64,000 nucleotides of DNA, taken from positions 192,882,001-192,946,000 of the forward strand of contig OZ024741.1 in the NCBI GenBank assembly GCA_964016885.1, in the 5' to 3' direction. The notes beneath the pieces were generated by a model that searched no databases, was not told where the DNA came from, and saw only the letters and a program-made list of their open reading frames with translations. The DNA is from Eledone cirrhosa. Its lineage: Eukaryota. Position numbers and translations under genes: made by a program. Positions 3,451 through 63,200 of this stretch are shown one piece after another (the first letter of the stretch is position 1; each line of letters starts with the position of its first letter).

Positions 3451-3927
3451 ATACTTGGGGAGCGTCATATTTGTGTAATATTGCCAGAATTAATAAATAA
3501 ATATATAAACAGACTAAATAAAGATGGCGTAGAAAATAAAATTATATATTAATAAATAAATATATAAACAGACTAAATAAAGATGGCGTATAAAATACAA
3601 TGCAATGGGATGAAACAATAGCACCACTGACGATGTTGCAGATGTGCAACGAAAGAACTTTGATAAACTATATATATGTGTTTGTGTCTATATTGTATCT
3701 GTATTATTTTTGACCGTTGGTCAGTCAATGGCAACATTGAGGACCGAATAAATTAGATTACCGATATAAAAGACACAGAAGCGAAAAGCGAAAACCAACC
3801 AAACAGTGAGTGTGTTCTGTTATTAATTCTGGCAATATTACACAAATATGACCCTCCCCAAGTATAACAATATTTGTTTCGACACACGATTTCATATCAA
3901 AAACCTCGCAAAACTAATTGATCGCCG

Positions 3928-5199: not shown

Positions 5200-8300
<3,101 letters not shown>

Positions 8301-16905: not shown

Positions 16906-19790
16906 GATGGAAAGCTTTCCATTTCGATAAAGGAAGCGCCAGTCACTCGTCTGAATCATATGGTTTTAAACCATGTAAAAACCCACCCACAAACCCTCAT
17001 CTCGATGCTTTCGAACAAGATTTAATGAAAACGACCATGAACATTAAGTTAAACAAACATAGAAATAATGAGCTGCAGAGCAACATGAAAGCACTACTCC
17101 GAAGATTGCAAAATACCAATGGAATTGTTGTGAAAGCTGACAAGACATCTAACGTGTATACCATGGATATCGATACGTACAATAACTTCATACGCAACGA
17201 ACTACACAAAAAATATAGAAAGCAAATGAAACTACGCTAGCAAATATTAACAACGAGGCATATAAAGTGGTGAAGAATCTCAAGATAGACGATAGAACCG
17301 AGCCGATTATACCCGCTACCCCACCTTCAACCTGAAGGACCATAAGGTAAATTTTGACTCTAACCCTAAGATTAGACTTATATGCCCTTCTAAATCAGAC
17401 ATAGGAAAAATTAGCAAACATATACTTGACAGAGTAATAACTCAAGTGAAAAAGAACATTGAAATTAAATTATGGGGCCATACTATCGAAGCAATTCGCT
17501 GGTTTAATAACGTTAGGAATAAGAATAAATCTAAGTTTATACAATTTGACATAGACGAATACTACTCTTCAATCTCACCAAGCACTTTACGTAAGGCCCT
17601 ATCGTTTGCTAAGGTCAATTCCGACCTAATGGAGGACGAAATTAATATTATTCTCGAGGCTAGAAAAACCATTATTAAGTTTGATAACTGCTACTGGGAA
17701 CGTAAGGACAGACCCACAAATTTCGACATTACCATGGGTTCCAACGACTCAGCGGAGGTCACGGATCTCGTGGGAATTTACATAGCCCACATATTACATA
17801 GTAAATTTAGTAATCTACAGGGGGGGGGGGGATATACAGAGATGACGGGCTCTTATTAGTTAATAACTTGAATAACTAAAATCTTGAAAGGCTACGGAAA
17901 AATATTAGAAAATCTTTTAGTGAACTGGGTCTAAAAATAACATACGAATACAATCTTAAAGTAGTAAACTTTCTGGACGTAACTCTTAATTTAAATACCG
18001 GACAGATACGACCCTTCCACAAGATGAATGAGAACCTTACGTATATTAACTTTAACTCAAACCACCCACTCTCCATGATCAAATCAGTTCCCCGGAGTAT
18101 TTCTCTTAGAATCTCTCGCCTATCGTCTAACTCTGATATTTTTTAGTGAACACGCTGAATACTACAATAATGCATTAAGGAAGGCTGACCACCGGGATAC
18201 AATAGAATACATTGATAGGAATTTCCATAACACACATAGCTCTACACGAAATCAAGGAATACGTAACCGGGGGACTAAAATAATAGCGCACACACACAAT
18301 ACTACCAGACATACTAATAATAGAAAATCACCACCAAATAAATCACGTTGTAGAAAGTATATCTGGTACAATCCTATTTTTAATGCCTCGATTAGTACAA
18401 AACTATCTCTTTCATTCTTTAAGTTAATCAACAAACATTTCCCTAGTTCCCATAAATACAGCAAAATCCTGAACTCTAAAACTATTAGACTATCATACTC
18501 CACGGCACCAAACCTTGAAGCATACATAAACAAACTTAACTTAAGGCAATTAAACAACTCTACAAAACAAAACATTTTAGTAACAGATGGGCAGAACGTA
18601 ATATCTGCCTCCCAACCACTAAATGGGAGATGGGTATTACACAATCCACCTGTACCGCTATCACAACCTATCCATGGTATACCCGCTACCCACAACAAAG
18701 AATGTAACTGCCATCTACCTGAAAGATTTCCATTGAAGAATGAATGCTTAAAGTCCAACATTGTTTACCAATGCACGGTTGAATCGAACGACCAGAAATG
18801 GTATTATATCAGATCTACCACCACCTCGTTTAAATCTCGCTGGTACCGTCATCGATTCTCAATCGAACATCCTAATCACCGTTTTGTGACCACGCTCGCC
18901 AACAAGACTTGGCAACTCCGTGAACGCAACCAACAGTTCACCTTAAAATGGGATATACTTTCCAGCGCAAGTGCATATCGGAGTGGATTGAAGTACTGCA
19001 GGTTATGTAACCTTGAACTCTTTTACATATTAAAATCCAAAAACAAACTACTTAACGATAGAATTGAACGATCATTATACTGCAACCACAAACTAAAAGC
19101 TAAATTCTCTCACTATAAAATAACTTAACATTCGAACCCGTAAGTATAACATCGCTTTCTAGCTAACCACCTTCTCTTCCCCCACACTACAAGACAATAC
19201 ACTGCTTATCACTATAAATGGTAACCCAGTGCAATTCACAGATTACTACTACAAACCCAAAGTTCACTCACCACATAAACTTCGTCTGTCCCCTCTCTAC
19301 CTCTCTCTCTACGTCCATTACACTCTCTCTCTCTCTCTCTCGCCTTTGGCCTACCTCCCTCTCCACATCTATGAATCTGCCCTCTGGGGCAATAAATAAT
19401 TCCGACCTTAACTATCAACGCATCTCTCCAAAAGTAACCAGTATAATAAAACCCCTACCATAACATTTTGATTAAGATATCTACAAACCACTCTCTCCTA
19501 CTTCTCCAACCCCTGCATATCTTTCTCTCTCTCTCTCTCCCTCTCCCCTACTTTTCTCTCTTCCTTTTCACCTCTATCTTCCCCAACAACCCCACTTAAG
19601 GGTATTTACATTGTACATTTTACCATTTTGCTCTGAGGATACAGTGGTCACAGCATTGGATATTTAAGTTCTGCAAATACTTGTAAATTTGCACATAGCA
19701 TAACTAGGCTGTACAACCATCGTGGAAACATTGGTAAGCACACGGAATAAATTACCTTTTTATGATGTCTACCTGTTATTATTCATTCTT
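16905..19790 (+). mobile_element. Penelope-like retroelement P2 (Naiad-like layout), frameshifted
   Basis: KADKTSNVY, QFDIDEYYSSI, FDITMGSNDSAEV and YRDDG motifs, CNC..xPL knuckle, GIY-YIG ORF 18733-19128; HHR and AATAAA in the 3' pLTR; (TA)n flanks. Confidence 0.9.
19629..19740 (+). ncRNA. Hammerhead ribozyme in the P2 pLTR
   Basis: TGCT-CTGAGGA-[TAC/GTG, TGGT/ACCA, ACAGC/GCTGT]-GAAAC-ATTG-GTA-AGCA. Confidence 0.75.
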
Positions 19791-24379: not shown

Positions 24380-25545
24380 GGTTAATCCAGTTAGAGATTG
24401 CGTTGAAAACTGCAACAATTGGATTATCTACATATCTAAGGGAATCACATGATTGGATGATCAAACTCGTTTTGAAATACGAAAGCATCAAAAGATCATA
24501 CTCCATTACAAAAGATGCACAAAGATACAGTAATGGACTACAAATCCCAGAAGTTCCATTTACTGCTGAAATGAAAAACACAGAAAAAGCAAAGCAGGTA
24601 AAAGTAACTGTAAAGAAAGAACTGCTACAGAAACTGGCTAAGAAATGGCAAGTAAAGCCTCTGTATGGAAAATACCCAGTGAGAGCTAACAATCCTGATG
24701 TTGACAAAACTTTAACCCATCAGTGGTTGGCTTCCTCTGGACTGAAATCGGAGACTGAAGGACTGATTATATCAGCACAAGATCAGTGTCTTCCAACAAA
24801 AAATTACCAAGCCAACATAATAAAAAATGGATGCAGCCCATTATGTAAAAAACAACCAGAGACCATTAATCACATAATTTCAATGTGCAGTCCTATAGCT
24901 CCAACCGAATACCTAAACAGGCATGACAGAGCTGCACAATACATACATTGGATAATGTGTAAGCATTTTGACCTGCCCCATCAAAAGAATTGGTGGGAGC
25001 CTCAACCACCTCCCATACTTGAAAAAGATCACATCTCAATCTTGTGGAACTTTAGCATCCAAACTGACCGAAAAATAGATGCAAATAGATCTGATATAAT
25101 ACTGAAGGACTTTAAAAAGAGGGTATGCCTGATAATTGATATGTCCGTTCCAATAGACAAGAATGTATCTATAAAAACATTTGAAAAATTGAGCAAGTAT
25201 GAGGACCTGGAGATAGAAATTGGAAAAATGTGGAAATTGAGAACTAAAACAATACCAGTGGTTGTGGGTGCTCTGGGAATGATACCTAAGGGGTCTAATG
25301 ATTACTTATCGCAAATCCCAGGAAACCCGCGTATAGAAGAAATACAAAAGATAGTACTAATGGAAACTGCCCATATACTAAGGAAGATTCTCTCAATATA
25401 AGTACATCACAAGTCTAAACACTAAAGATGCATGTGTGAGTATGTATGTTCTTTCTTGAACATGGCGGACCTTGTTGTCTCTTGAAGTCACTGGTTGTGA
25501 CTTGGTGATAACTCGTATGAAGATAAAGCAAGATAAATGCAACTG

Positions 25546-25576
<31 letters not shown>

Positions 25577-25590
25577 TATAATAATAATTA
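24378..25590 (+). mobile_element. R4/Dong-type RLE LINE family A, 5'-truncated 3' piece
   Basis: SETEGLIISAQDQ, CCHC remnant, RHD, NRSDI...IIDMSVP..K..EKLSKY (PD-D/ExK); (TAA)n on both sides; near-identical to 62320-63500. Confidence 0.9.
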
Positions 25591-25592
25591 TC

Positions 25593-28172
25593 ATAGAGGA
25601 ACTGAAGCAACGCATTGTAGCAAAGAGTGCAAAAATCAGGCGATACGAGAACAGAGTCAGTCAGTATAAACAGAACCGCATGTTCGACAACAACCAGAAG
25701 ATGCTGTCTGGACAGCTTGAGGAGAAAGAAAGAGGCAACGACTTGATCCCTGGGGCGGAGCAAACTAAAACATTCTGGAGAGGAATATGGGAGCAGGATG
25801 TTAGACATAATTTCCAGGCAGGGTGGATTGAGAAAGTACAGAGGGAGATCGGTGAGCAGGCACAACAACAAACTGATTTGAGTATCACAGTTGAAACTCT
25901 TGAGGGGCAGGCCAAAAAACTAACCAACTGGAAATCACCAGGCCCAGATGGTGTGCAGGGGTATTGGATTAAACATTTAACATCCCTCTACCCGAAGCTG
26001 ACGGCCATATTCAATGACTGCTTGGTGTCGGGTGAGGTGCCAGAGTGGTTGACAAAAGGTACCACAGTTCTGATAATGAAAGACCGAATCAAGGGTAATG
26101 ATGTTACCAACTATAGACCTATCACATGTCTGTCCGTAATGTGGAAACTGTTGACGAGCATTGTGTCTGAGGAAATCTACCATCACCTCCACACAAACAA
26201 CTTGTTACCGGACGAACAGAAAGGATGCCGAAAGAAGTCACGTGGTACAAAGGACCAGTTACTTATTGATAAGATCGTAATGGGGAATTGCAGGAGGAGA
26301 CACACTGATCTTGCCATGGGATGGATAGACTACAGAAAGGCATTTGACATGGTGCCTCATTCTTGGATCACCAAAAGCCTGGAGATCTTCAGGGTGGCAG
26401 ATAACATCAGACAGTTGCTAGGCAGGAGTATGGGGTCCTGGGAGACAGAGTTGACATCAACTGGAGTATCCTTGGGAAGCGTGAAGATCAAGAGAGGTAT
26501 CTTCCAGAGAGATAGCCTGTCCCCTCTGTTGTTTGTCCTTGCCCTGATGCCCTTGACCATTATGCTTCGAAAAGTGAGAGCAGGATACAAGTTGGGAAGG
26601 GGAGAGCTTACCATCAATCACCTCCTCTTCATGGACGATCTTAAGCTCTTCGGGAAAAGTGAGAAGGAGTTGGATGTGCTTGTTGACACTGTCCGTATTT
26701 TCAGCAGTGATATATGTATGCAGTTTGGTATTGGTAAATGTGGAGTCATTGTGATGAGGAGGGGTAGGTTGAGCAGAAGTAACGGGATCCAGATACCAAC
26801 AGGTGAGATGATAAAGGAAATTGACTCTGAGGAAGGATACAAGTATTTGGGCGTTCTGGAGGCTGATGGCATAAAGAACAAAAAAATGAAGGAATTGTTA
26901 AGAACTGAATACATTCGGAGAGTAAGGAGCGTATTGAAGTCACATCTGAACAGCAGAAATGCCATAAGCGCAGTAAATTCCCGAGCTGTGTCTATTATTA
27001 GGTACAGTGCGGGAATTCTGAGATGGAATGTTGCTGAACAAAAAGAAATGGATAGGAAGACTAGGAAGCTATTGACTATCTACAACATGTTCCACAAGAG
27101 GAGTGATGTCGATAGACTCTACCTAAGGAGATCTGAGGGTGGAAGAGGTCTTATCAGCATAGAGGACTGTGTTCAGATGGAGAAAAACAACCTATACAAA
27201 TACGTGACCTATAGTAAGGAGCCAATGCTCAGAACTGTACTGAAGGAGGGGACAGTAGGCCAGGGGATGTCCAAGGAGGAAATAACATCAAGGAGGAAGA
27301 GCAGCCTTAAGGGAAAATCCCTTCATAGTACCTTCTTTGAGAAAACTGAATTTAGAGATCCACAGACATGGAACTGGTTGAGAAGAGGAGACCTCAAAAA
27401 GGCTACAGAAGGAATGCTAATGGCTGCGCAGGAGCAGGCCCTCAAAACGAAGTGGTTGAAGCACCATATTTACAAGGAGGAGGCTAGTCCACTGTGCAGG
27501 ATCTGTGGAGAGAGAGAGGAGACTGTGGCTCACATTGTGTCCGAGTGTAAACACCTAGCCCAGACCCACTATAAGGGCTGGAGACACGATGTGATGGGCA
27601 GGGTGATCCACTGGCACCTGTGCAAAGTAAACAATTTACCACATTCTGAGAAATGGTATGAGCATAGGCCAGAGGCGGTGATGGAGAACAATCAGGTGAA
27701 GGTGCTGTGGGATTTTAGGATACAGACGGACAAAAAACTGGAACACAATAGACCTGACCTGGTGGTTGTGAACAAAGAAAAAAGATCGTGTCTGATTGTG
27801 GATGTGGCCTGCCCGTTCGACACGAGAGTGCAAGAGAAGGAGAGGGAGAAAATTAACCGATACCAGGACCTAAAGTGGGAGGTGAAAAGGATTTGGAACT
27901 GCCATGAAGTCAAAGTGATCCCGATTGTCATAGGCGCACTGGGGACTATCTCCAAAAGTTTCCAGGGATGGTTAAAGAAAATCGGCCCCTTCACGCTTTT
28001 TGGAACGCTTCAAAAGGCATGCTTGCTTGGAACAGCAAGAACCCTCCGATACGTCCTGAATATCTGAGGCTGCAGGTAGTGGCTTGATATTCAATCCAAC
28101 GGACTTTCCAGTTAACCAACATCAATGACTGAGATTCAAGGAATAACAACAATAATAATAATAATAATAATA
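25593..28172 (+). mobile_element. R4/Dong-type RLE LINE family B, 5'-truncated
   Basis: RT, CCHC and RLE in one uninterrupted frame; short 3' UTR and (TAA)n tail. Confidence 0.92.
25680..28067 (+). CDS. RT-zinc knuckle-restriction-like endonuclease ORF (795 aa, N-terminally truncated)
   Basis: KSPGPDG, YRPITCL, DYRKAFD, GIFQRDSLSP, LFMDD, CRICG..ETVAHIVSEC, RHD and RPDLV..IVDVACP motifs. Confidence 0.9.
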   Translation: MFDNNQKMLSGQLEEKERGNDLIPGAEQTKTFWRGIWEQDVRHNFQAGWIEKVQREIGEQAQQQTDLSITVETLEGQAKKLTNWKSPGPDGVQGYWIKHLTSLYPKLTAIFNDCLVSGEVPEWLTKGTTVLIMKDRIKGNDVTNYRPITCLSVMWKLLTSIVSEEIYHHLHTNNLLPDEQKGCRKKSRGTKDQLLIDKIVMGNCRRRHTDLAMGWIDYRKAFDMVPHSWITKSLEIFRVADNIRQLLGRSMGSWETELTSTGVSLGSVKIKRGIFQRDSLSPLLFVLALMPLTIMLRKVRAGYKLGRGELTINHLLFMDDLKLFGKSEKELDVLVDTVRIFSSDICMQFGIGKCGVIVMRRGRLSRSNGIQIPTGEMIKEIDSEEGYKYLGVLEADGIKNKKMKELLRTEYIRRVRSVLKSHLNSRNAISAVNSRAVSIIRYSAGILRWNVAEQKEMDRKTRKLLTIYNMFHKRSDVDRLYLRRSEGGRGLISIEDCVQMEKNNLYKYVTYSKEPMLRTVLKEGTVGQGMSKEEITSRRKSSLKGKSLHSTFFEKTEFRDPQTWNWLRRGDLKKATEGMLMAAQEQALKTKWLKHHIYKEEASPLCRICGEREETVAHIVSECKHLAQTHYKGWRHDVMGRVIHWHLCKVNNLPHSEKWYEHRPEAVMENNQVKVLWDFRIQTDKKLEHNRPDLVVVNKEKRSCLIVDVACPFDTRVQEKEREKINRYQDLKWEVKRIWNCHEVKVIPIVIGALGTISKSFQGWLKKIGPFTLFGTLQKACLLGTARTLRYVLNI

Positions 28173-37219: not shown

Positions 37220-38742
37220 TTGTATAGTATTACTGTCGAATACATAGACTATAGTATAGTATGACTGTTGAATACATATAGTATAGTATTACGGTTGAAA
37301 ATATATAGTATAGTATTACTGTTGAAAATCTATAGTATAGTACAGTATTACTGTTGAAAACATATAGTGTAGTATTACTGCTGAAAATATATAATATAGA
37401 ATTACTGTTGAAAATATATAGTATAGTATTACTTTTGAAAATATATAGTATAATATAACTGTTGAAAATATATATTACAGTATTACTGTTGAAAATATAT
37501 AGTACAGGACAGTATTACTGTTGAAAATATATAGTACAGTATTACTGCTGAGAATATATAGTATAGTAATACTGTTGAAAAAGTATAGTATAGTATTACT
37601 GTTGAAAATATATAGTATAGTATTATTGTTGAAAACATATAGTATAGTATTACTGTTGAAATATATAGTATATTTTTACTGTTGAAAATATATAGTATAG
37701 TATAGTACGGCTGTTGAAAACATAGTATAGTACAGTATTACTGTTGAAAATATATAGTATAGCATAGTATTATTGTTGAAATATATAGTATAATATAACT
37801 GTTGAAAACATATAGTATAGTGTTACTGTTGAAAATATATAGTAGAGTACAGTATTACTGTTGAAAATATATAGTACGGTATTACTGTTGAAAATATATA
37901 GTATAGTATTAATGTTGAAAATATATAGTATACTATTACTGTTGAAAATATATAGTACAGTACAGTATCACTGTTGAAAATATATAGTATAGTACAGTAT
38001 TACTGTTGAAAATATACAGTATAATATTACTGTTTAAAACATATAGTATAGTATAGTATTACTGTTTAAAATATATAGTATAGTACAGTATTACTGTTGA
38101 AAATATATAGTATATTATAGTATTACTGTTGAAAATATATAGTATATTATTACTGTTGAAAATATATAGTATACTATTACTGTTGAAATATATAGTACAG
38201 TATTACTGTTGAAAATATATAGTATACTAATTACTGTTGAAATATATAGTACAGTATTACTGTTGAAAATGTATAGTATTACTTGTTGAAAATATATAGC
38301 ATAATATTATTGTTGAAAACATATAGCATAGTATTACTATTGAACATATATGGTATAGTATTACTGTTGAAAATATATAATATAGTATTACTGTTGAAAA
38401 TATATAGTATATCATTACTGTTAAAACATATAGTATAGTATATTATTACTGTTGAAAATATATAGTATAGTATTACTGACGAAAATATATAGTATAGTAT
38501 AGTATTAATGTTGAAAATATATAGTACGTGCAGTATTACCGTTGAACATTTATAGTACAGTACAGTATCACTGTTGAAAATATATAGTATAGTATTACTG
38601 TTGAAAATATATAATGTAGTATTACTGTTGAAAATATATAGTATAGTATTACTGTTGAAAATATATAGTATAGTATTACTGTTGAAAATATATAGTATAG
38701 TATTAATGTTGAAAATATATAGTATAGTATTCGTGTTGAAAA
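37220..38742. repeat. Minisatellite, ~27-bp unit GTATTACTGTTGAAAATATATAGTATA with variable AGTAT/AGTAC inserts
   Basis: About 50 tandem units read directly. Confidence 0.95.
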
Positions 38743-38771
38743 TAAGTACACGAATATATAATTATATATAC

Positions 38772-40099: not shown

Positions 40100-41064
40100 C
40101 CTGTTGTTCTACAGATGCTTTTATATTTAGTATAGAAGTTTATCTAGCGTAAAATTTATTCAATAGATTGGGAGCATCAACATTTTAGGGTAGTTTAATT
40201 ACATCGTTAGTATATATTTATGAAGAAGGTTTAAAAAGAAAAAGTTGAAGGAATCGAAAGATTTATCGTCTGGTTTCATAATTAATTAAATATCTTAACT
40301 AAATATACTACATTTTAAATTTATATTTATATTTAAACGTTGAGTTCAATCTATGTCTGCAGCAACTGAATAAATTGCTCCTTAGATTAAGGGAATTTTT
40401 AGATTTTAATATAAAGAATATCTCCTCCACGCAGAGGTCACATGTCTCAGATGAGGAATTAAAAGGAATCCCTCTTGAGACTATATTCCAAAACAACGAA
40501 TATCCAACGTTATCATGTTTAAGTTGCCAGAGTAAACCCGATAGTGAAGTTGAAGATTTTTTGCCTGGATCAGTGAAAGAATTCTTATGATTATTATAGC
40601 GAAGTTTAAATTCTGTCGAGGTGGAACCAACATAGTTAAAAGAATTTAAGTCAGTTTTAACATTACAATTGTATATTATATTTTTAACTAAGCAATTGTT
40701 ATTTAACGGACATTTAGATTTATTTCTACAGTTACAGTTGTTTAATTGAATATTGTTTAGGCTATTATCGGTATTTTGGCTAGGTTTTAGATTCCTATTA
40801 TTTATTCTGTTAATATTTTGTGCTAAATTTTTGGTGGACGAGTAAGTTAATTTTATAGTATGTCTATTAAAAATTGAGTGATATTTATGTGTTCTAGGGA
40901 AGCGTTTGTCAAGAGCATTAAATGCTTGACAAGAGCATTTAATGCTCTTGACAAACGCTTCCCTAGAACACATAAATATCACTCAATTTTTAATAGACAT
41001 ACTATAAAATTAACTTACTCGTCCACCAAAACTTTAGCACAAATTATTAACAGAATAAATAATA
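40100..41064 (-). mobile_element. Penelope (Naiad-like) GIY-YIG 3' fragment with fold-back 5' end
   Basis: ORF 40308-40982 has KRFPRTHKYHSIFNRHTIKLTYS, CNCRNKSKCPL, IIYNC...YVGST and CDLC; 40796-40926 is mirrored at 40934-41064. Confidence 0.85.
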
Positions 41065-43124: not shown

Positions 43125-44479
43125 AATATTAATTCCAAATATTAATAAATATAGACATTCATATATCAAATATATTTTATTATATATATTTCAGAGGTAA
43201 TGTTCTGTTTCCTCAGTACGTCCTCATCAGATAAAATAAATTGATGTCTGACATACCTCAACTGTGCTGATGGTTCAATTTCAGTCGTGGCAAGGATTAG
43301 TTATGACAAAACTCAATATTTATATACCATAAGCAGTAACATGACAATCTACATATAATTGAGAGGGTGAGTAGGAAGACGTGTAGAAAAAAATACAATA
43401 AATACATTTACAGATAAATAAAATACATAAACACATCAGTACATAACTGTTAAATATTTAAATAAATATTTAAATATCCGTATTAGAGAAAAAAACAAAT
43501 GAGAGAGAGAGAGCTAAATAGATGAGAAAAGGAAAAGATAGAGAGATGAAGATAAAAACGAAGACAGGGAGCTATAGATGGTATAATATAATTACATAAG
43601 GAAAAGAAGAATGGAGGTACATTGCGTGACCGTTTTTCTTTTCAAATATTAAGTTAGGTATAAACGATCAATTAAATACCGTAAAATGTTTACTCTATAA
43701 TATTTGAAAGAAATTATACTATTATATTATATCAAAATTAAAACAATATAGAGTGATATAAGATAATATAACATATTTTCAATGAAAATCTGGAGCAAAT
43801 TTAAATTAGTAAATACATTCAATAATTTAGTCATAAAATTCAAAATTCAAAATATTATTAACTAACAATGGTGCTTACAAATATAGTAAATATGATATTA
43901 TTAAACTAGATAATAGCATCTGTATATGCATTTTATATAAACAAAACTATTTAAATCGATATTTGTCAATTACATATAGGATTAATTATTAGTTATATTT
44001 ACACTTGAGAGTATTATTATTTCGATTCAACCAAATTTTACTGTATTCAATACTATAAATCAAGTTAAATACAGATTATTAATCAATTTAGATAAAACGA
44101 AACTTATACACGATAAATGTAAACAATATCTACGTACGGCGTATCTAAACGTTTAAATTAATTAAACGGTTTGAAAGTCTGAAGATATTACAGATCCCAA
44201 ATTTATAAAATAATTGACAAATATCGATTTAAATATTATTGTTTATATAAAATGCTTATACAGATGCTATTATCTAAGTAAGTTAAGTTTAATAATATCA
44301 TATTTACTATATTTGTAAGCACCATTGTTAGTTAATAATATTTTGAATTTTGAATTTTATAACTGAATTATTGAATGTATTTACTAATTTAAATTTGCTC
44401 CAGATTTTCATTGAAAATATGTTATATTATCTTATATCACTCTATATTGTTTTAATTTTGATATAATATAATAGTATAA

Positions 44480-44735
44480 GTATGTACACGTACATACATA
44501 TATGTATACAGACGTACAGTAGTATGTATATATATGTACATACATGCACACATATATATATGTACGTATGGATTCACCGAACATTTATTATAATGCTCGG
44601 TGTGTTTGTAAACAAACATCCCGTATTAAACCGTAGTGTCTAGCAACCAACGTTGCTCGTTTGTTCAACACTGACAAAGGAACGCTGTACTAGTTTCAAG
44701 CTTATTAGCTATCGTCAGCAACGTATACCTTACTG
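44480..44735 (-). mobile_element. 256-bp hammerhead-bearing retroposon with 13-bp TSD
   Basis: TSD TATAATAGTATAA at 44467-44479 and 44736-44748; single copy in the other arm (~43714-43726); HHR near the 5' end; AATAAA; (CATA/TA)-rich 3' tail. Confidence 0.85.
44682..44724 (-). ncRNA. Minimal type I hammerhead ribozyme
   Basis: ACGTTG-CTGACGA-tAGCT aata AGCTt-GAAAC-TA-GTA-CAGCGT; palindromic ACTAGT stem III. Confidence 0.8.
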
Positions 44736-45335
44736 TATAATAGTATAATTTCTTTCAAATATTATAGAGTAAACATTTTACGGTATTTAATTGATCGTTT
44801 ATACCTAACTTAATATTTGAAAAGAAAAACGGTCACGCATCATGTACCTCTATTTTTCTTTTCCTTATGTAATTATATTATACCATCTATATCTCCCTTT
44901 CTTCGTTTTTATCTTCATCTCTCTATCTTTTTCTTTTCTCCTATATTTAGCTCTCTCTCTCTCATTTGTTTTTTTCTCTAATACGGATATTTACATATTT
45001 ATTTAAATATTTAACAGTTATGTACTGATGTGTTTATGTATTTTATTTATCTGTAAATGTATTTATTTTATTTTTTTCTACACGTCTTCCTACTCACCCT
45101 CTCAATTATATGTAGATTGTCATATTACTACTTATGGTATATAAATATTGAGTTTTGTCCTCACTAATCACTGCCAAGACTGGAATTGAACCATCAGCAC
45201 AGTTGAGGTATGTCAGACATCAATTTATTTTATCTGATGAGGACGTACTGAGGAAACAGAACATTACCTCTGAAATATATATAATAAAATATATTTGATT
45301 ACATGAATGTCTATATTTATTAATATTTGTTATTA

Positions 45336-45375
<40 letters not shown>

Positions 45376-48699: not shown

Positions 48700-49440
48700 A
48701 AGGCTTCCTCAAAGTGCTGCTATCCCCCTATCAGCCGAAGTCGGGTGCCACCTTCTGAGTGTAATTGTGGCACTCATCAACAGGTTCATTATTGGAGCCC
48801 TGGACCCTTACGCTCGAGGCCTCTTCTTTTAGGTCAGCCTGACCGCTCTCAGGAAGAAAGAGGCTGACATATTCCCTAATACTGTGGGCAATGTCTCCTG
48901 GAGGATGGCTGTTAAGGTGATCTTCAGGTGTATTACACCTGAACTGGGTGAGGAACTCAGCCCGGTGCAACTAGGGGTCGGCGTGTCCGGTGGATGTGAG
49001 GGAGTTGCACATGCAGCTAGGCAGTTCTGCAATAGCTGCTCACCAAAACCGGCGTCGAGGGACGGTAGGCACCTCATTGTCAAGCTTGACATGAGGAATG
49101 CCTTTAACTGCTTACGCCGTGACTATCTGCTCGAGGTCTGCCTCAGTCGATCCCCCTCTACGTACTCGCTGGCCTACCTGTCGTATGGAGCCCCGAGCAT
49201 GCTCCTTGTTGCTGGTATGGTCATAACTTCAGCCACTGGGGTTCAACAGGGTGACGCTTTGCGCCCCCTCCTCTTTGTTCTCTGTATAGACCACATTACT
49301 CGGAACATCAATGGGCGGACATCGTTGGGCGGACCGTGGAGACTGTCTGTCACGGCCTGCTATCGGTGGTTCCTGCTCAGGCGAAAATTGGCCTCAAGGT
49401 CAACTCGTCCAAGCCGGAGGTGGAGAATGTGAACCACATT
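48700..49440 (+). pseudogene. CRE-clade non-LTR RT fragment
   Basis: ORF 48884-49432 has LSPVQLGVGVSGGCEGVAHAAR, KLDMRNAFN and SATGVQQGD motifs. Confidence 0.75.
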
Positions 49441-56640: not shown

Positions 56641-59600
56641 TGTTTTCTTTATTAACCACAAGGGTTTACATAAAGTAGACATTAAGGACAGTACAGGACA
56701 ATACAGGACGGTACAGATGGGCATTTCTGCGTGTAAAAAAACAGAGGTTGAAATAAAATAACAAAGAAAAATTCCCCAATAGGGGGGAGACTTCCGAGGG
56801 ACATTTGTGGAGAAAGCCCATTAAAAGACCACAGTGGCCCTGACCACCAGAGCAAGTGCCCTCTCCCAGTTTTCCACCTTTAATTTACAGACACATACTC
56901 AGAGAAGGCCCATTCATTCGGGCCATTCTTGCCTCTCACCCATCTTTCAACAAAATGCTGGGAAGAGAGCACTTCCCTCTCTACCCTGATTTTCCTTTTC
57001 AAATGAAATTTTAAAAAGTTAATCAGGGCATCACCGAAGAGGTAAGTGCTCGTCTTCAGCCCTTTCAAACGTGTCCACCATACTATCTCTTTCGCCATGG
57101 CCACCAGACAGATAAAAACTGCCTGCCCTTCCCGGCTAAAGGAAGGGGCGGGGCAATCCTCACGATGGACTCAGCTGATAGCTTGATCCGTCCTACACGT
57201 AACAGCAGGTGTTCGACATAAACCCACAAGTCAGCAATGCTCGGACACTGGACAAGTGCGTGCAGGACGGTTTCGTCGCCCTGTGCGCATCTCGGACATG
57301 CCCGGCTGACGGCACCTCCATGCCTGTAAAGTTTATCCCGAACTGGCAAAGCACCCCGGTAGCACTGCCAGGCCAGGGATTTCTGGAAGTTGTCCATAGG
57401 CCCCGGCCCGAAAGTCCTTCCGAAGAGATTGGCTAGTTGATTTTCGTCGACGCGTGATTTTCTCCAAGTACGTCGTCGCTCTTCCCCTCCACTAATCCCC
57501 TATAGAACGCCAAGGTGGAGTTTCCACCGATCACATTGCCCGATTGGTCGAGGGCTGTGAGCGCCTGAAGACATTCCAGTCTCCAAGCGCTCCCTCTCGG
57601 TCTTCGCTTGACCCAGGACTGCAGCTCCGTCAAGGAGACGAGCTGGGGAAAAATGTGTCTAGCAAACGGCGACCACACCTGATCACCGTCGAGGAAGAGG
57701 TGGAGATGTCGTAGCCTGAGCGCGTGTCTGCGCATCATCAGCCACGGCATGCCCATCCCTCCACGTAGCAGGTGTTGACAGCAGATGGACCGCCTGACCA
57801 TCGGAGCGCGTCCCTTCCACAAGAAGCGAAAGAGCAAACGCTCCAGCGCAGTCAGGCGGGGCTTAGGACAAGGTACGACGGTCAGGCGGTAGTAGATGAC
57901 GGACGCGATGTACGCGTTAGCCACCTCCGCTCGACCTTTCAGGGATAGCTTCCTCTCCGCCCATTTCTGGGTGAGAGAAGCCACCCTGCTCGTCACCTCG
58001 TCCCAGTTTTTGTCCGTCTGGAGGTCTGGACCGAACTAGACCCCTAGCAATTTAACCGGTCCGTCCGTCCAGCGCCCGACGACGCTGTTGGACGGCATGG
58101 ACCTGCCTCTCCAGGTGCTGAGCTGCAGGCCCACTGACTTTTCCTGGTTGATCATTGCTCCTGTCACCGCTTCGTATTCTCTTAGTGTAGTGCCGATCGC
58201 CTCGATGTGTTTGGCGTTCGACACCACTACGGTGACATCGTCGGCATATGCTGACACGGATCTTCCGCATCCTAGTTCGCGCGGGATCCCCCTCAACGTC
58301 TCCAGTTTGTGCAGTAATGGCTCGAGAGTCAATACGTACAATAGGGACGAGAGGGGACATCCTTGGCGGACCGAGCGCATGATGTTGAACGGTTCCGAAA
58401 GGTGACCGTTCACTCTCACTACAGAGCAGATGTTGCTGTGCATGGCAGCGATCCAGCCTCTGAAGACGGGCCCAAAGCCAGCCGCCCTCAGGACTGCCTC
58501 TAGGTAACGATGGTCGACCCTATCGAAGGCTTTCGACTGATCTAAATTGATCAAAGACCCACCCGTGCCAGGTTCCCTAGCTACCCTCTCTACGATGTAT
58601 CGCACGAGGTGGAGGTTGTCGTGGATGGATCTGTCGGGAATGGCGCATGTCTGCGCCTCTCCCACCAGACCACCAACGACAAGCGCCAACCTCTTTGCTA
58701 GCACCTTGGCCAAAATCTTGAACTCTGTGTCTAGCAGAGTTATGGGCCTAAAATTATCTATGTTATCCCCCTTGTTCGGATCCTTTCTCAGCAGCGCCAC
58801 CGCTCCTCGGCTCACAGAGCTGGGAATTCTCCCGTTCTGTTGCCAGTTGCAGTAGACGTCCGCCAGGAGGCCTCCGAACAAGTTTGGCATTTGTACGTAA
58901 TGTTCATAGGGCAGACCATCCAAACCAGGCGATTTACCCCTTGTGCAACTAGTCATTGCATCCCGTACTTCAGCGGTTGTTATCGGCTTTTCGCAACACT
59001 CCGCCTCAGTGGCCGAAAGCCGCGGCAGTCCGTCGAGGTAGACACTAAAGTCCATCCCTCGATCCGGCCCGCCACTGCCCCCGAACAGTTGAGCGAAGTG
59101 TCGCTGAAATGCTTCACACATTTGCCCGGGATCGTGTAGCATGCGCCAGGGAATTTTGATGGCCGGTGGAACGTGGGTCACCCTGATCTTTACGAGTCTC
59201 TGGCCACAATAGCTTGGGACGAGTGTGAAGTCGTCACTTCTTAATGGGGCCATGGAGTGTTCTCTAGCCTCCTCTGGTGTTTCAAAGAACACATCCACGG
59301 TTCCATACTTTTGCCCACGTCTGATGTGGGTTTTTCTTGCCCACACGTGTCCCAAAGCTTTTTGGATTTGGGACTCGGATACCCGTTCCACTCGGCGCGA
59401 TTTTACATTTATTGTTCTATACGACACGGTGCATAGGCACCGATGCTCCATTTTATTAGGTGTGTGTGTGTGGGGGGGGGGGGTTGAGGCTGACCCTGTA
59501 CCCATCTTTCTTTACCATTTGTTTGGCATTTTCTAAATCCTCCTGAGTTACCGTAAATGCTTCGAACTGTTTTGCTACTCTGGCGAAACTGAGGGTCGAT

Positions 59601-60271: not shown

Positions 60272-63200
60272 GAAAATAATGAGATCGTAAATAAATGAAA
60301 ATAATGAGATCGTAAATGATAAAGAAATGAATGAGAATGAACTTGCCAACTTGAAGGATGAAATTATGATCGAATGGATGAAAATGAAAGAATCTGACAT
60401 GGGGCAACGAGACACCCTCCCTAAGATCCAGAACTCCAAACAGAACCAAAAGATAATACACAAGGCTAACATAATTCTCAAAAACATTATCATCACAAAC
60501 AAACTAAACATTACTGATTTAAATCATCTATATTATGCATCGGCTAAAGTCACCACTCACTTATGTGGAGTGAAGATGAAAAAACAAAGGAATTCCCACA
60601 AGAAATCTACTTGGCAAGAGAACATCAATCGCCAAATAAACCTTCTCCGATCTGACATAGAAATTTTAACAAACTATAAAGTAGGTGAACATGTTAAACA
60701 AACTAAACTTAGAAAATGAAAAAAAAGTACAGTATAAAATCAACATGTGACATAGATATGCTGATAGAAATAATCAAGCAAAAAGTGTCGGCCAAAGCTG
60801 CTCGTATCAGGCGCTTTAAAAAACGATCTAGATTCTATAAGGACAATAATATGTTCAAAAACAACCAACGAAACTTCTACAGAAAAATTGGTAAGTCAAC
60901 AATAACTGCTAAATCAATACCACCCAAGGAGGAAGTGCAAGAATTCTGGGAAAAGATCTGGGCCGAAGAAAATGTTCATAACATACATGCCCCATGGATA
61001 GACAGACAAATGAAAGATACAGCTCACCTTGAGGAACAAATATGGGAAAATATAACAGTTGAACAGTTGCGCTTGGCTCTAAGAAAAACCAGCAGATGGA
61101 AATCCCCAGGAAAAGACAAAATACAAAACTTTTGGATAAATGCCTTCACAGAGTCTCATGAGCTGTTAGCCCAACTTTACAATGAAATAGTTAAGGAGCC
61201 AGAAAAGATACCATCATGGCTAGTTAACGGCATTACATTCCTGCTTCCGAAGAATGATGAGACAAACAATCCCAAAAATTACAGACCAATAACTTGCTTG
61301 ACCACAATGTATAAAATTTTAACATCAGTCCTAACTGAATACACATATGACCACCTGATAACAAATGACCTATTTCCCATTGAGCAAAAAGGGTGTAAAC
61401 GAGGCTCATAAGGCTGTAAGGATCAGCTTCTGGTTAACAAAATGATACTGGAAGATTGTCATAATAGACACAAAAATCTATCGATTGCTTGGATAGATTA
61501 TGAAAAAGTATTCGATAGTTTGCCACACAGTTGGATTGAAAAATGTTTAGAGATTTTCAAAATATCCTCCGTTGTCAGGAGGTTTTTGACATTCAGTATG
61601 AAGACATGGAAAACGACACTCCTTTTGAATAGTGAAACAAAATCACTGGAAGCTGGAGAAGTTAATATTAATTGTGGAATTTTTCAGGGTGACTCTTTAT
61701 CACCGCTTTTATTCTGCATCGCACTTATACCATTAAGTAAAATGCTCAATGAAACAAAACATGGATATAAAGTCTATGACAAAACCATTAATCACCTGTT
61801 CTACATGGATGACCTGAAACTATTTGCAAAAAATGATGAACAATTGCAAGGGCTATTATCCACTGTGGAGCAGTTCAGTGATGACATTAAAATGGAGTTT
61901 GGACTAGATAAATGCGCCAACGCAACGTTCACCAGAGGAAAGCTGCTGAAGAGTTCAGACATTAATCTTGATCGGGGGAACGTGATAAGAGAACTTGATC
62001 AAGAAAAAACTTACAAATATCTAGGTGTTTGTGAAGGAGACGGAATCAAGCACTCAACAATGAGGGAAAGGATAAGGAAGGAATGTTACCGCAGAGTAAG
62101 AGCAATCTTAAGAACGGAATTGAATGCAAGGAATAGGATCTATGCCATAAACACGCTTGCCATACCAGTAGTAACCTACAGTTACAATGTCATCAACTGG
62201 TCAAGCACAGAGATCCGTAGGCTCGATACAAAAATTCGAAAATTCTTAACCATGCACAGAATGCATCACCCTAAGGCAGATATAGATAGAATATATCTCC
62301 CTGGGAAAGAAGGAGGACGTGGGTTAGTCCAGTTAGACATTGCGTTGAAAACTGCAACAATTGGATTATCTACATATCTAAGGGAATCACATGATTGGAT
62401 GATCAAACTCGTTTTGAAACACGAAAGCATCAAAAGATCATATTCCATTACAAAAGATGCACAAAGATACAGTAATGGACTACAAATTTCAGAAGTCCCA
62501 TTTACTGCTGAAATGGAAAACACAGAAAAAGCAAAGCAGGTAAAAGTAACTGCAAAGAAAGAACTGCTACAGAAACTGGCTAAGAAATGGCAAGAAAAGC
62601 CTCTGTATGGAAAATACCCAGAGCGAGCTAACAATCCTGATGTTGACAAAACTTTAACCCATCAGTGGTTGGCATCCTCTGGACTGAAATCGGAGACTGA
62701 AGGACTGATTATATCAGCACAAGATCAGTGTCTGCCAACAAAAAATTACCAAGCCAACATAATAAAAATGGATGCAGCCCATTATGCCGTGTATGCAAAA
62801 AACAACCAGAGACCATTGACCATATAATTTCAATGTGCAGTCCTATAGCTCCAACCGAATACCTAAACAGGCATGACAGAGCTGCACAATACATACATTG
62901 GATAATGTGTAAGCATTTTGACCTGCCCATCAAAAGAATTGGTGGGAGCATCAACCACCTCCCATACTTGAAAAAGATCACATCTCAATCTTGTGGAACC
63001 TTAGCATCCAAACAGACCGAAAAATAGATGCAAATAGACCTGATATAATATTGAAGGACTTTAAAAAGAGGGTATGCCTGCTAATTGATATGTCTGTTCC
63101 AATAGACAAGAATGTATCTATAAAAACATTTGAAAAATTGAGCAAGTATAAGGACCTGGAGATAGAAATTGGAAAAATGTGGAAATTGAGAACTAAAACA

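Follow-up and report, generated by a model that had tools for sequence, protein, structure and literature searches.

A truncated hammerhead retrozyme in Eledone cirrhosa and the genomic traces of its family's mobility

Introduction

One arm of an inverted repeat in the genome of Eledone cirrhosa is split by a 256-bp insert that carries a hammerhead ribozyme (HHR). The insert lies in a window of 64,000 nucleotides (assembly GCA_964016885.1, contig OZ024741.1, positions 192,882,001 to 192,946,000), which is the whole stretch of DNA analysed and sets the coordinates used below unless another contig or locus is named. Two questions arise at this locus: to what kind of element does the insert belong, and what form of RNA was its template? 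The original prediction, made from the window sequence, took it for a self-contained mini-retroposon, a ribozyme-bearing non-coding RNA inserted as one unit by target-primed reverse transcription of an uncleaved, circular or multimeric template.

Non-LTR retrozymes have been described in metazoans, namely coral, mussel and axolotl (Cervera and de la Pena 2020, PMC7229834). For these elements, mobility through circular templates and PLE enzymes has already been proposed: in that paper, tandem cDNA is suggested to arise from circles by PLE RT, and editing is brought up solely to account, possibly, for heterogeneous RNA.

Results

The insert and its target site

A genome search with the insert returned 472 candidates, the best of them 98-99% identical. 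The flanks of matching copies showed that the insert (44480..44735, minus strand) corresponds to nt 1-256 of a 420-bp monomer, in which the next bases are TTATA. It covers about 61% of this monomer and is thus not the self-contained unit first proposed. The predicted perfect 13-bp target-site duplication (TSD) is present: the 13-mer TATAATAGTATAA occurs at 44467..44479, at the element's 3' (priming) end, and at 44736..44748, at the 5' junction. The inverted repeat that hosts the insert preserves the empty target site at 43714..43726 in its left arm, and the joined flanks of the insert match that arm (43623-43813) at 191 of 191 bases, as the prediction had held. Its claim of exact boundaries fares less well, because TTATA (44479-44475) fits target and element alike; this 5-nt microhomology extends the alignment through monomer nt 261 and leaves the 3' boundary uncertain by 5 nt.

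On the minus strand, the insert opens with 11 nt and the 5' strand of helix I. The CUGACGA core starts at 44718 and leads into a helix II of 4 bp, which has a U.U at its base; GAAA and the palindrome ACUAGU come next, with cleavage after 44688. The hammerhead as a whole spans 44677..44731, including distal helix I and a UAU/U loop 1. Its 6-bp helix I pairs 44724-44719 with 44687-44682, the core comprises 44718-44712 and 44697-44694, helix II lies at 44711-44698, and the palindromic helix III at 44694-44689. Downstream on the same strand, a conserved hairpin (44575..44604) contains AATAAA at 44589-44584 (insert nt 147), followed by an internal CATA/TATG hairpin (44480..44569, monomer nt 167-256). 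The leading 11 nt and the downstream AATAAA agree with the prediction; the supposed CATA-like 3' tail does not, being an internal hairpin (monomer nt 167-262) that in other copies is followed by about 160 more family bases. The stem letters of the AATAAA hairpin vary by subfamily with pairing preserved. The motif is unlikely to act as a poly(A) signal, and the 3' ends of the family copies inspected are not followed by a poly(A) tail. The insert has no ORF, as predicted, its longest Met-ORF being 53 aa. Of the Pol III boxes, also said to be lacking, the A-box is indeed absent, but one loose B-box-like 9-mer is present. A SINE was rejected on these features, on the scattered 5' ends of the copies and on the internal position of the 'tail'. 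Compared with the family majority, the window copy differs at 4 of 256 positions, none of them A>G.

The ribozyme had been described as a minimal HHR with a palindromic stem III. The palindrome stands, but the ribozyme is of the canonical type I: metazoan type I HHRs have a 6-bp helix I, a 4-bp helix II and a short palindromic helix III, whereas in the min-HHRs of PLE pLTRs helix II has 7-8 bp, helix I has 4-5 bp and helix III is absent (PMC4209133). A min-HHR of the PLE type is excluded by all three helices. The exact ribozyme pattern has 25,638 matches in the genome against 0 for the reversed control, so the hammerhead is not a chance motif. An Rfam search left it undetected, and the predicted fold of its 66 nt is not more stable than that of shuffled sequences (z 0.29), so that the identification relies on the motif, the copy number and covariation. 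Helix I pairing is preserved across subfamilies, with 96.9% of cells paired and two-sided changes at two pairs, counts that are inflated by the relatedness of the copies. In this alignment (A1), helix II and the core were set by the search pattern, so it is uninformative on their conservation. The core, whose loss among copies would have spoken against the prediction, is intact in 135 of 160 copies.

The host inverted repeat and its surroundings

The left arm of the host (43126..43972, minus strand) corresponds to the 3' non-coding region of a PLE family and has a hammerhead-like motif near 43230. The right arm (44211..45339, plus strand), which is split by the insert, stands head-to-head with it and has such a motif at 45234. 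This inverted repeat is itself multicopy, with 2,054 candidates in a genome search. Longer copies continue into an RT and GIY-YIG-type frame, and a related 750-aa ORF (locus L187) scores 0.96-0.98 to atlas clusters with GIY-YIG or RT families, so the host is the 3' part of a PLE insertion in head-to-head arrangement, and the retrozyme entered one of its arms later. Pfam and PDB searches left the PLE ORF unrecognised; its identity comes from motifs and the atlas.

The window contains further traces of such elements. Hammerhead-like motifs of several PLE terminal-repeat families occur at 3627, 15405, 16579, 38943, 42116 and 45604, in addition to 43230 and 45234. A broken, near-full PLE reading frame at 16929-19107 has about 35% identity to the 750-aa ORF of L187, and PLE endonuclease pieces with a 131-bp palindrome lie at 40338-41060. 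Self-comparison revealed a degenerate long tandem repeat of short units at 37222-38750. RVT_1 matches in frames at 25527-28067, 48833-49432, 58036-59511 and 61412-62827 probably belong to other retrotransposons. PLE RT is abundant in the genome.

A family of non-LTR retrozymes

The repeat family comprises three subfamilies with monomers of 420, 430 and 466 bp, the window copy belonging to subfamily A. Monomers have a GC content of 0.36-0.37 and a longest Met-ORF of 51-53 aa, and are found singly, in tandem and head-to-head. In a position-ordered sample of 40 stretches, taken from the first 41 pattern-match clusters of contig C1, 18 of 40 are head-to-head, 20 one-strand and 2 other. The longest array described here (C28:110036000-110067798; L108, L109, L112, L113) is satellite-like and extends over at least 31.8 kb with about 75 or more units, which are about 6% apart and end at the first preferred 3' end of the family (site 1, see below). 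The 5' ends of copies are scattered, and terminal repeats were absent from the mapped loci. With a type I HHR in each unit, tandem non-coding monomers, GC below 50% and TSDs longer than 4 bp, the family is, by the sequence definition, one of non-LTR retrozymes. The window insert is a real, ordinary truncated member of this known class.

The genome-wide copy check that had been proposed revealed high copy number, tandem arrays, preferred 3' ends and TSDs of 12-13 bp, and supports the reading of a ribozyme-bearing non-coding RNA inserted by target-primed reverse transcription. The proposed template, uncleaved, circular or multimeric, is likewise upheld across the family: in a copy set drawn without regard to what lies upstream, the core is still intact 5' of the cleavage site in 27 of the 30 copies matched, and 37 of the 40 position-ordered loci run upstream into the previous monomer (two of the other three are threshold artefacts). 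The prediction would have failed had the copies extended 5' into a PLE ORF; instead, the monomer's own 3' part is found there, and none of 50 one-strand 5' flanks has a PLE peptide match upstream of the hammerhead. Both observations speak against an autonomous PLE or a solo pLTR. By analogy with the literature, cleavage of the hammerhead as a dimer, also part of the prediction, is plausible. The predicted circle is structured, with z scores of -5.3 and -8.7.

Three side observations concern the copies themselves. First, several 5' ends or inversion points (L019, L021, L022, L023, L033, L120 and 44735 in the window) fall within monomer nt 1-5, immediately 5' of the ribozyme, possibly marking a pause site, in a sample partly selected on that region. 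Second, at L173 (860-1604) a young-subfamily unit is joined upstream to subfamily-B sequence, which suggests a template switch between retrozyme RNAs. Third, family DNA, as DNA presence only, is found in contigs of runs X1-X6, including two other organisms.

Integration sites and the rule of one site per arm

In the position-ordered sample, 47 of 58 3' ends fall at two internal sites about 56 nt apart. The first of these, site 1, is the 3' foot of the CATA/TATG hairpin. Most 3' ends adjoin (TA)n. Unique targets have duplications of 10-15 bp, some of them counting microhomology (L006, L034, L035, L046), and the family TSDs measure 12-13 bp (13 bp in the window, 12 bp at L110). The L110 locus holds 13 pieces, 0.3% apart, inside a perfect 12-bp TSD.

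Head-to-head insertions whose two ends both fall at these sites use a different site in each arm in 36 of 40 loci (p = 9e-8 against 0.5), as counted in a hand-entered table that unites 15 of the 26 inverted loci of the first mapped set, 3 of the 8 new loci of the upstream-unselected set, 11 of the 18 position-ordered head-to-head loci and 11 young-array loci, and that drops composite loci and loci ending elsewhere or at an edge. Judged by its sequences, the family bears PLE-type integration marks: an inverted partner, a one-arm extension and an AT-rich or microsatellite target. We infer that the same RNA primes both target strands.

The PLE family that might provide the machinery was sought by homology. 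The retrozyme matched none of 8 PLE regions, a sample that covers a minority of the PLE families, and five long-ORF loci yielded only nested retrozyme pieces. PLE neighbours at L117, L127, L128 and L139 were rejected as partners, with (TA)n or other sequence lying in between, and are read as shared targeting. At L044 (809-2350) and L155, a retrozyme arm and a PLE endonuclease arm are joined centrally, with short inverted pieces of each, and a microsatellite is absent between the retrozyme and PLE pieces. L044 is possibly a retrozyme-PLE chimera, a single candidate from one event, which would name the partner PLE. At L155 (~5270-5290) and L117 (~2510-2530), the 3' end of a PLE family has a 10-11-nt stretch like the second 3' end of the retrozyme, a weak likeness in an AT-rich genome.

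Young arrays and their fixed A>G changes

A very young subfamily carries a marker with 635 matches; A363T was rejected as an array-private marker on this number. Across 19 young loci, the divergence of units is 0.16% inside an array and 0.33% from one array to another, changes are star-like with 41 singletons, and arrays end exactly at sites 1 and 2. Most young arrays are uninformative because they have no private fixed change. Among the 19 loci, fully fixed private changes occur only in L157, where A145G and A392T are found in 9 of 9 covering units and in both arms; one of the two is an A>T, and in an assembly search the A392T pattern was confined to the L157 array.

Following A145G led to the most informative array, L191 (2247-4699; C2:78934746-78937198), which consists of one partial and five full units and ends at site 1. 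It carries nine sense A>G changes: eight are present in every one of the six units, and the ninth in each of the five that cover its position. A 5' U precedes seven of the nine (p = 0.008), which fits the neighbour preference of ADAR. The hammerhead haplotype of L191 occurs nowhere else in the assembly. One contig of another sample (X5) joins the flanks without the array, which appears on this one contig to be polymorphic. Five of the nine fixed changes lie inside the hammerhead, in loop 1, helix I, loop 2 plus helix II, and the palindrome of helix III. A possible effect is weaker self-cleavage, which would make the circle more stable.

Other young arrays have similar changes. L192 and L204 have A374G, A378G and T384C in common, each with one further fixed A>G of its own, and L194 has three A>G common to its arms. 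Over five such arrays, 22 changes are fixed in all units that cover them, and 19 of these are A>G on the sense strand; four of the five arrays were found via a search requiring an A>G, and without the sites used for discovery the count is 15 of 17. By comparison, none of the 39 singletons of young arrays is an A>G, and A>G accounts for 41 of 619 rare changes in older units, which show no excess (41 A>G, 44 T>C). A45G gave 17 matches at 6 loci and the control T44C 5 matches at 4 loci, a difference that is small by locus; two of the A45G loci are arrays fixed throughout. At the control locus L198, three T>C are among six changes common to two adjacent units of an old array. Taken together, the L191-type pattern looks like ADAR editing of one RNA circle that was copied over several turns.

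Partial or arm-specific changes were also found, such as G332C in 6 of 9 units at L133 and C18T in 3 units at L114. Hairpin lengths are mixed at L133 and L158, the arms of L007 come from different subfamilies, and L079 contains a DNA-level duplication. When within-locus and between-locus distances were compared at older loci, the tally was 25 of 31 for the same arm and 16 of 25 for opposite arms; the latter is not significant, and the pattern is weak.

Discussion

A model for retrozyme insertion

We consider it likely that the insert is a truncated non-LTR retrozyme made by a PLE-type RT and endonuclease, acting in trans on what was likely a circular RNA. Retrozyme arrays would be transcribed, and tandem hammerheads would release monomers, probably as dimers. 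The monomers would close into structured circles, some of which may be A-to-I edited by ADAR. At an AT-rich target, the PLE protein would then place one nick in each strand, with a spacing of about 13 bp; one strand would prime synthesis from site 1 of the RNA, and the other from site 2 of that same molecule. Copying might cover less than one turn of the circle or extend over many turns, before the 5' ends of the two cDNAs are joined head-to-head. At the window locus, only the site-1 cDNA would have survived, having stopped 48 nt past the cleavage site.

A close variant of this model keeps the retrozyme and the PLE machinery but replaces the circle by a linear multimer, an uncleaved transcript of an array in the genome, so that uniform sources give uniform arrays. 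It draws on the use of unprocessed RNA as a PLE substrate (PMC11167929) and on the existence of source-like long arrays such as that on C28, and mixed templates would suit the mixed hairpin lengths of L133 and L158 and the arm-specific changes. It also explains the window copy fully: since none of the four differences of this unedited copy is an A>G, circle and multimer are indistinguishable here and fit equally well. The young arrays are harder to accommodate. Units of a linear multimer should be edited independently, but in L191 the same eight A>G are found at both ends of the array, in its first unit and in its last, and seven of them are unrecorded in the other young arrays analysed; a single circle copied several turns explains this pattern directly. 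A source with the haplotype of L191 or L157 is present at no other place in the assembly (an outside source is possible), and the long C28 array is heterogeneous, with 6% between units. We regard the linear template as unlikely, if the most serious of the alternatives.

Arrays could also form after insertion, by growth and homogenisation of short retrotransposed copies in DNA through unequal crossover and gene conversion (bioRxiv 10.64898/2026.07.22.740005). DNA duplication does occur in the family, as L079 and the old arrays L108, L198 and L203 share changes in subsets of units, and inverted arms can convert each other. For the young arrays, however, this origin is improbable: their changes are star-like singletons, yet they end exactly at sites 1 and 2, and L110 lies within an intact TSD. 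L191, which appears polymorphic from one contig, would in addition need two founders of nt 1-267 with the same eight edits. The remaining reading takes the insert either for a complete 256-bp mini-retroposon that ends in a tail or for the truncated solo pLTR of a PLE. It accounts for the exact TSD, the empty site and the few other copies starting at monomer nt 1-5 (L021, L033, L120), but is very hard to credit given the upstream extension of 37 of 40 loci, the internal 'tail' and the 50 one-strand flanks lacking a PLE ORF 5' of the hammerhead.

With moderate confidence, we extend the circular template from the window to the genome, which would preserve records of rolling-circle copying: ADAR-edited circles primed by PLE enzymes at two sites on both strands and copied for up to many turns, each young array representing a multi-pass copy of one RNA together with its edits.

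Relation to known systems

The family resembles the retrozymes of PMC7229834 in its tandem monomer, which is non-coding and a few hundred bp long, in its GC below 50%, type I HHR, TSD longer than 4 bp and structured predicted circle. Its helix III recalls that of Amex1 from axolotl, the U.U that closes the foot of helix II recalls Amex2, and its monomer of 420-466 bp is at or above the 150-450 bp range given there. Those retrozymes are known with RNA evidence, whereas the present family is known from the genome alone. Head-to-head arrays, two fixed priming sites and genome-fixed A>G edits are unmentioned in the accessible text of that paper.

Likenesses to PLEs (PMC11167929, PMC8557442, PMC3846280) comprise partial tandems, an inverted 5'-truncated partner, an optional one-arm tail, microsatellite targets and two internal RT start sites. 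Head-to-head PLE copies have a tail on one arm (PMC8557442, PMC3846280), and the Poseidon protein PAc was found in vitro to use two internal RT start sites, to nick both strands and to accept uncleaved RNA (PMC11167929). Unlike PLEs, the family lacks an ORF, its sites are 56 nt apart rather than 30-40, and its HHR is canonical instead of the min-HHR of PLE pLTRs. Junctions here have short target microhomology, whereas PAc initiated without homology (PMC11167929).

For vertebrate retrozymes, a PLE origin has been argued from phylogeny and tandems have been attributed to local DNA amplification (bioRxiv 10.64898/2026.07.22.740005). The present family has PLE co-occurrence and monomer, dimer and multimer loci in common with them; in contrast, pLTR homology was not found here in the regions tested, and the young arrays point to tandem synthesis at insertion rather than later amplification. 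Pseudogenes derived from circRNAs (PMC4897178) are likewise retro-insertions of circular RNA, but of back-spliced gene circles, and the main text of that paper lacks the words rolling, tandem, rounds and editing. In the literature covered, which included few subscription papers, neither retrozyme copies with edits fixed throughout an array nor a one-site-per-arm rule for retrozymes were found described.

The interest of this locus lies in the retrozyme family and not in the 256-bp insert. The family offers testable particulars of a mobility already proposed for animal retrozymes, with two mapped priming sites, a rule of one site per strand and a very young subfamily, and its A>G-barcoded arrays separate a circular from a linear template. 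It provides unusually direct genomic evidence on the mechanism of retrozyme mobility. If the reading of its young arrays is true, editing would feed heritable variation, even within the ribozyme, into the retrozyme lineage.
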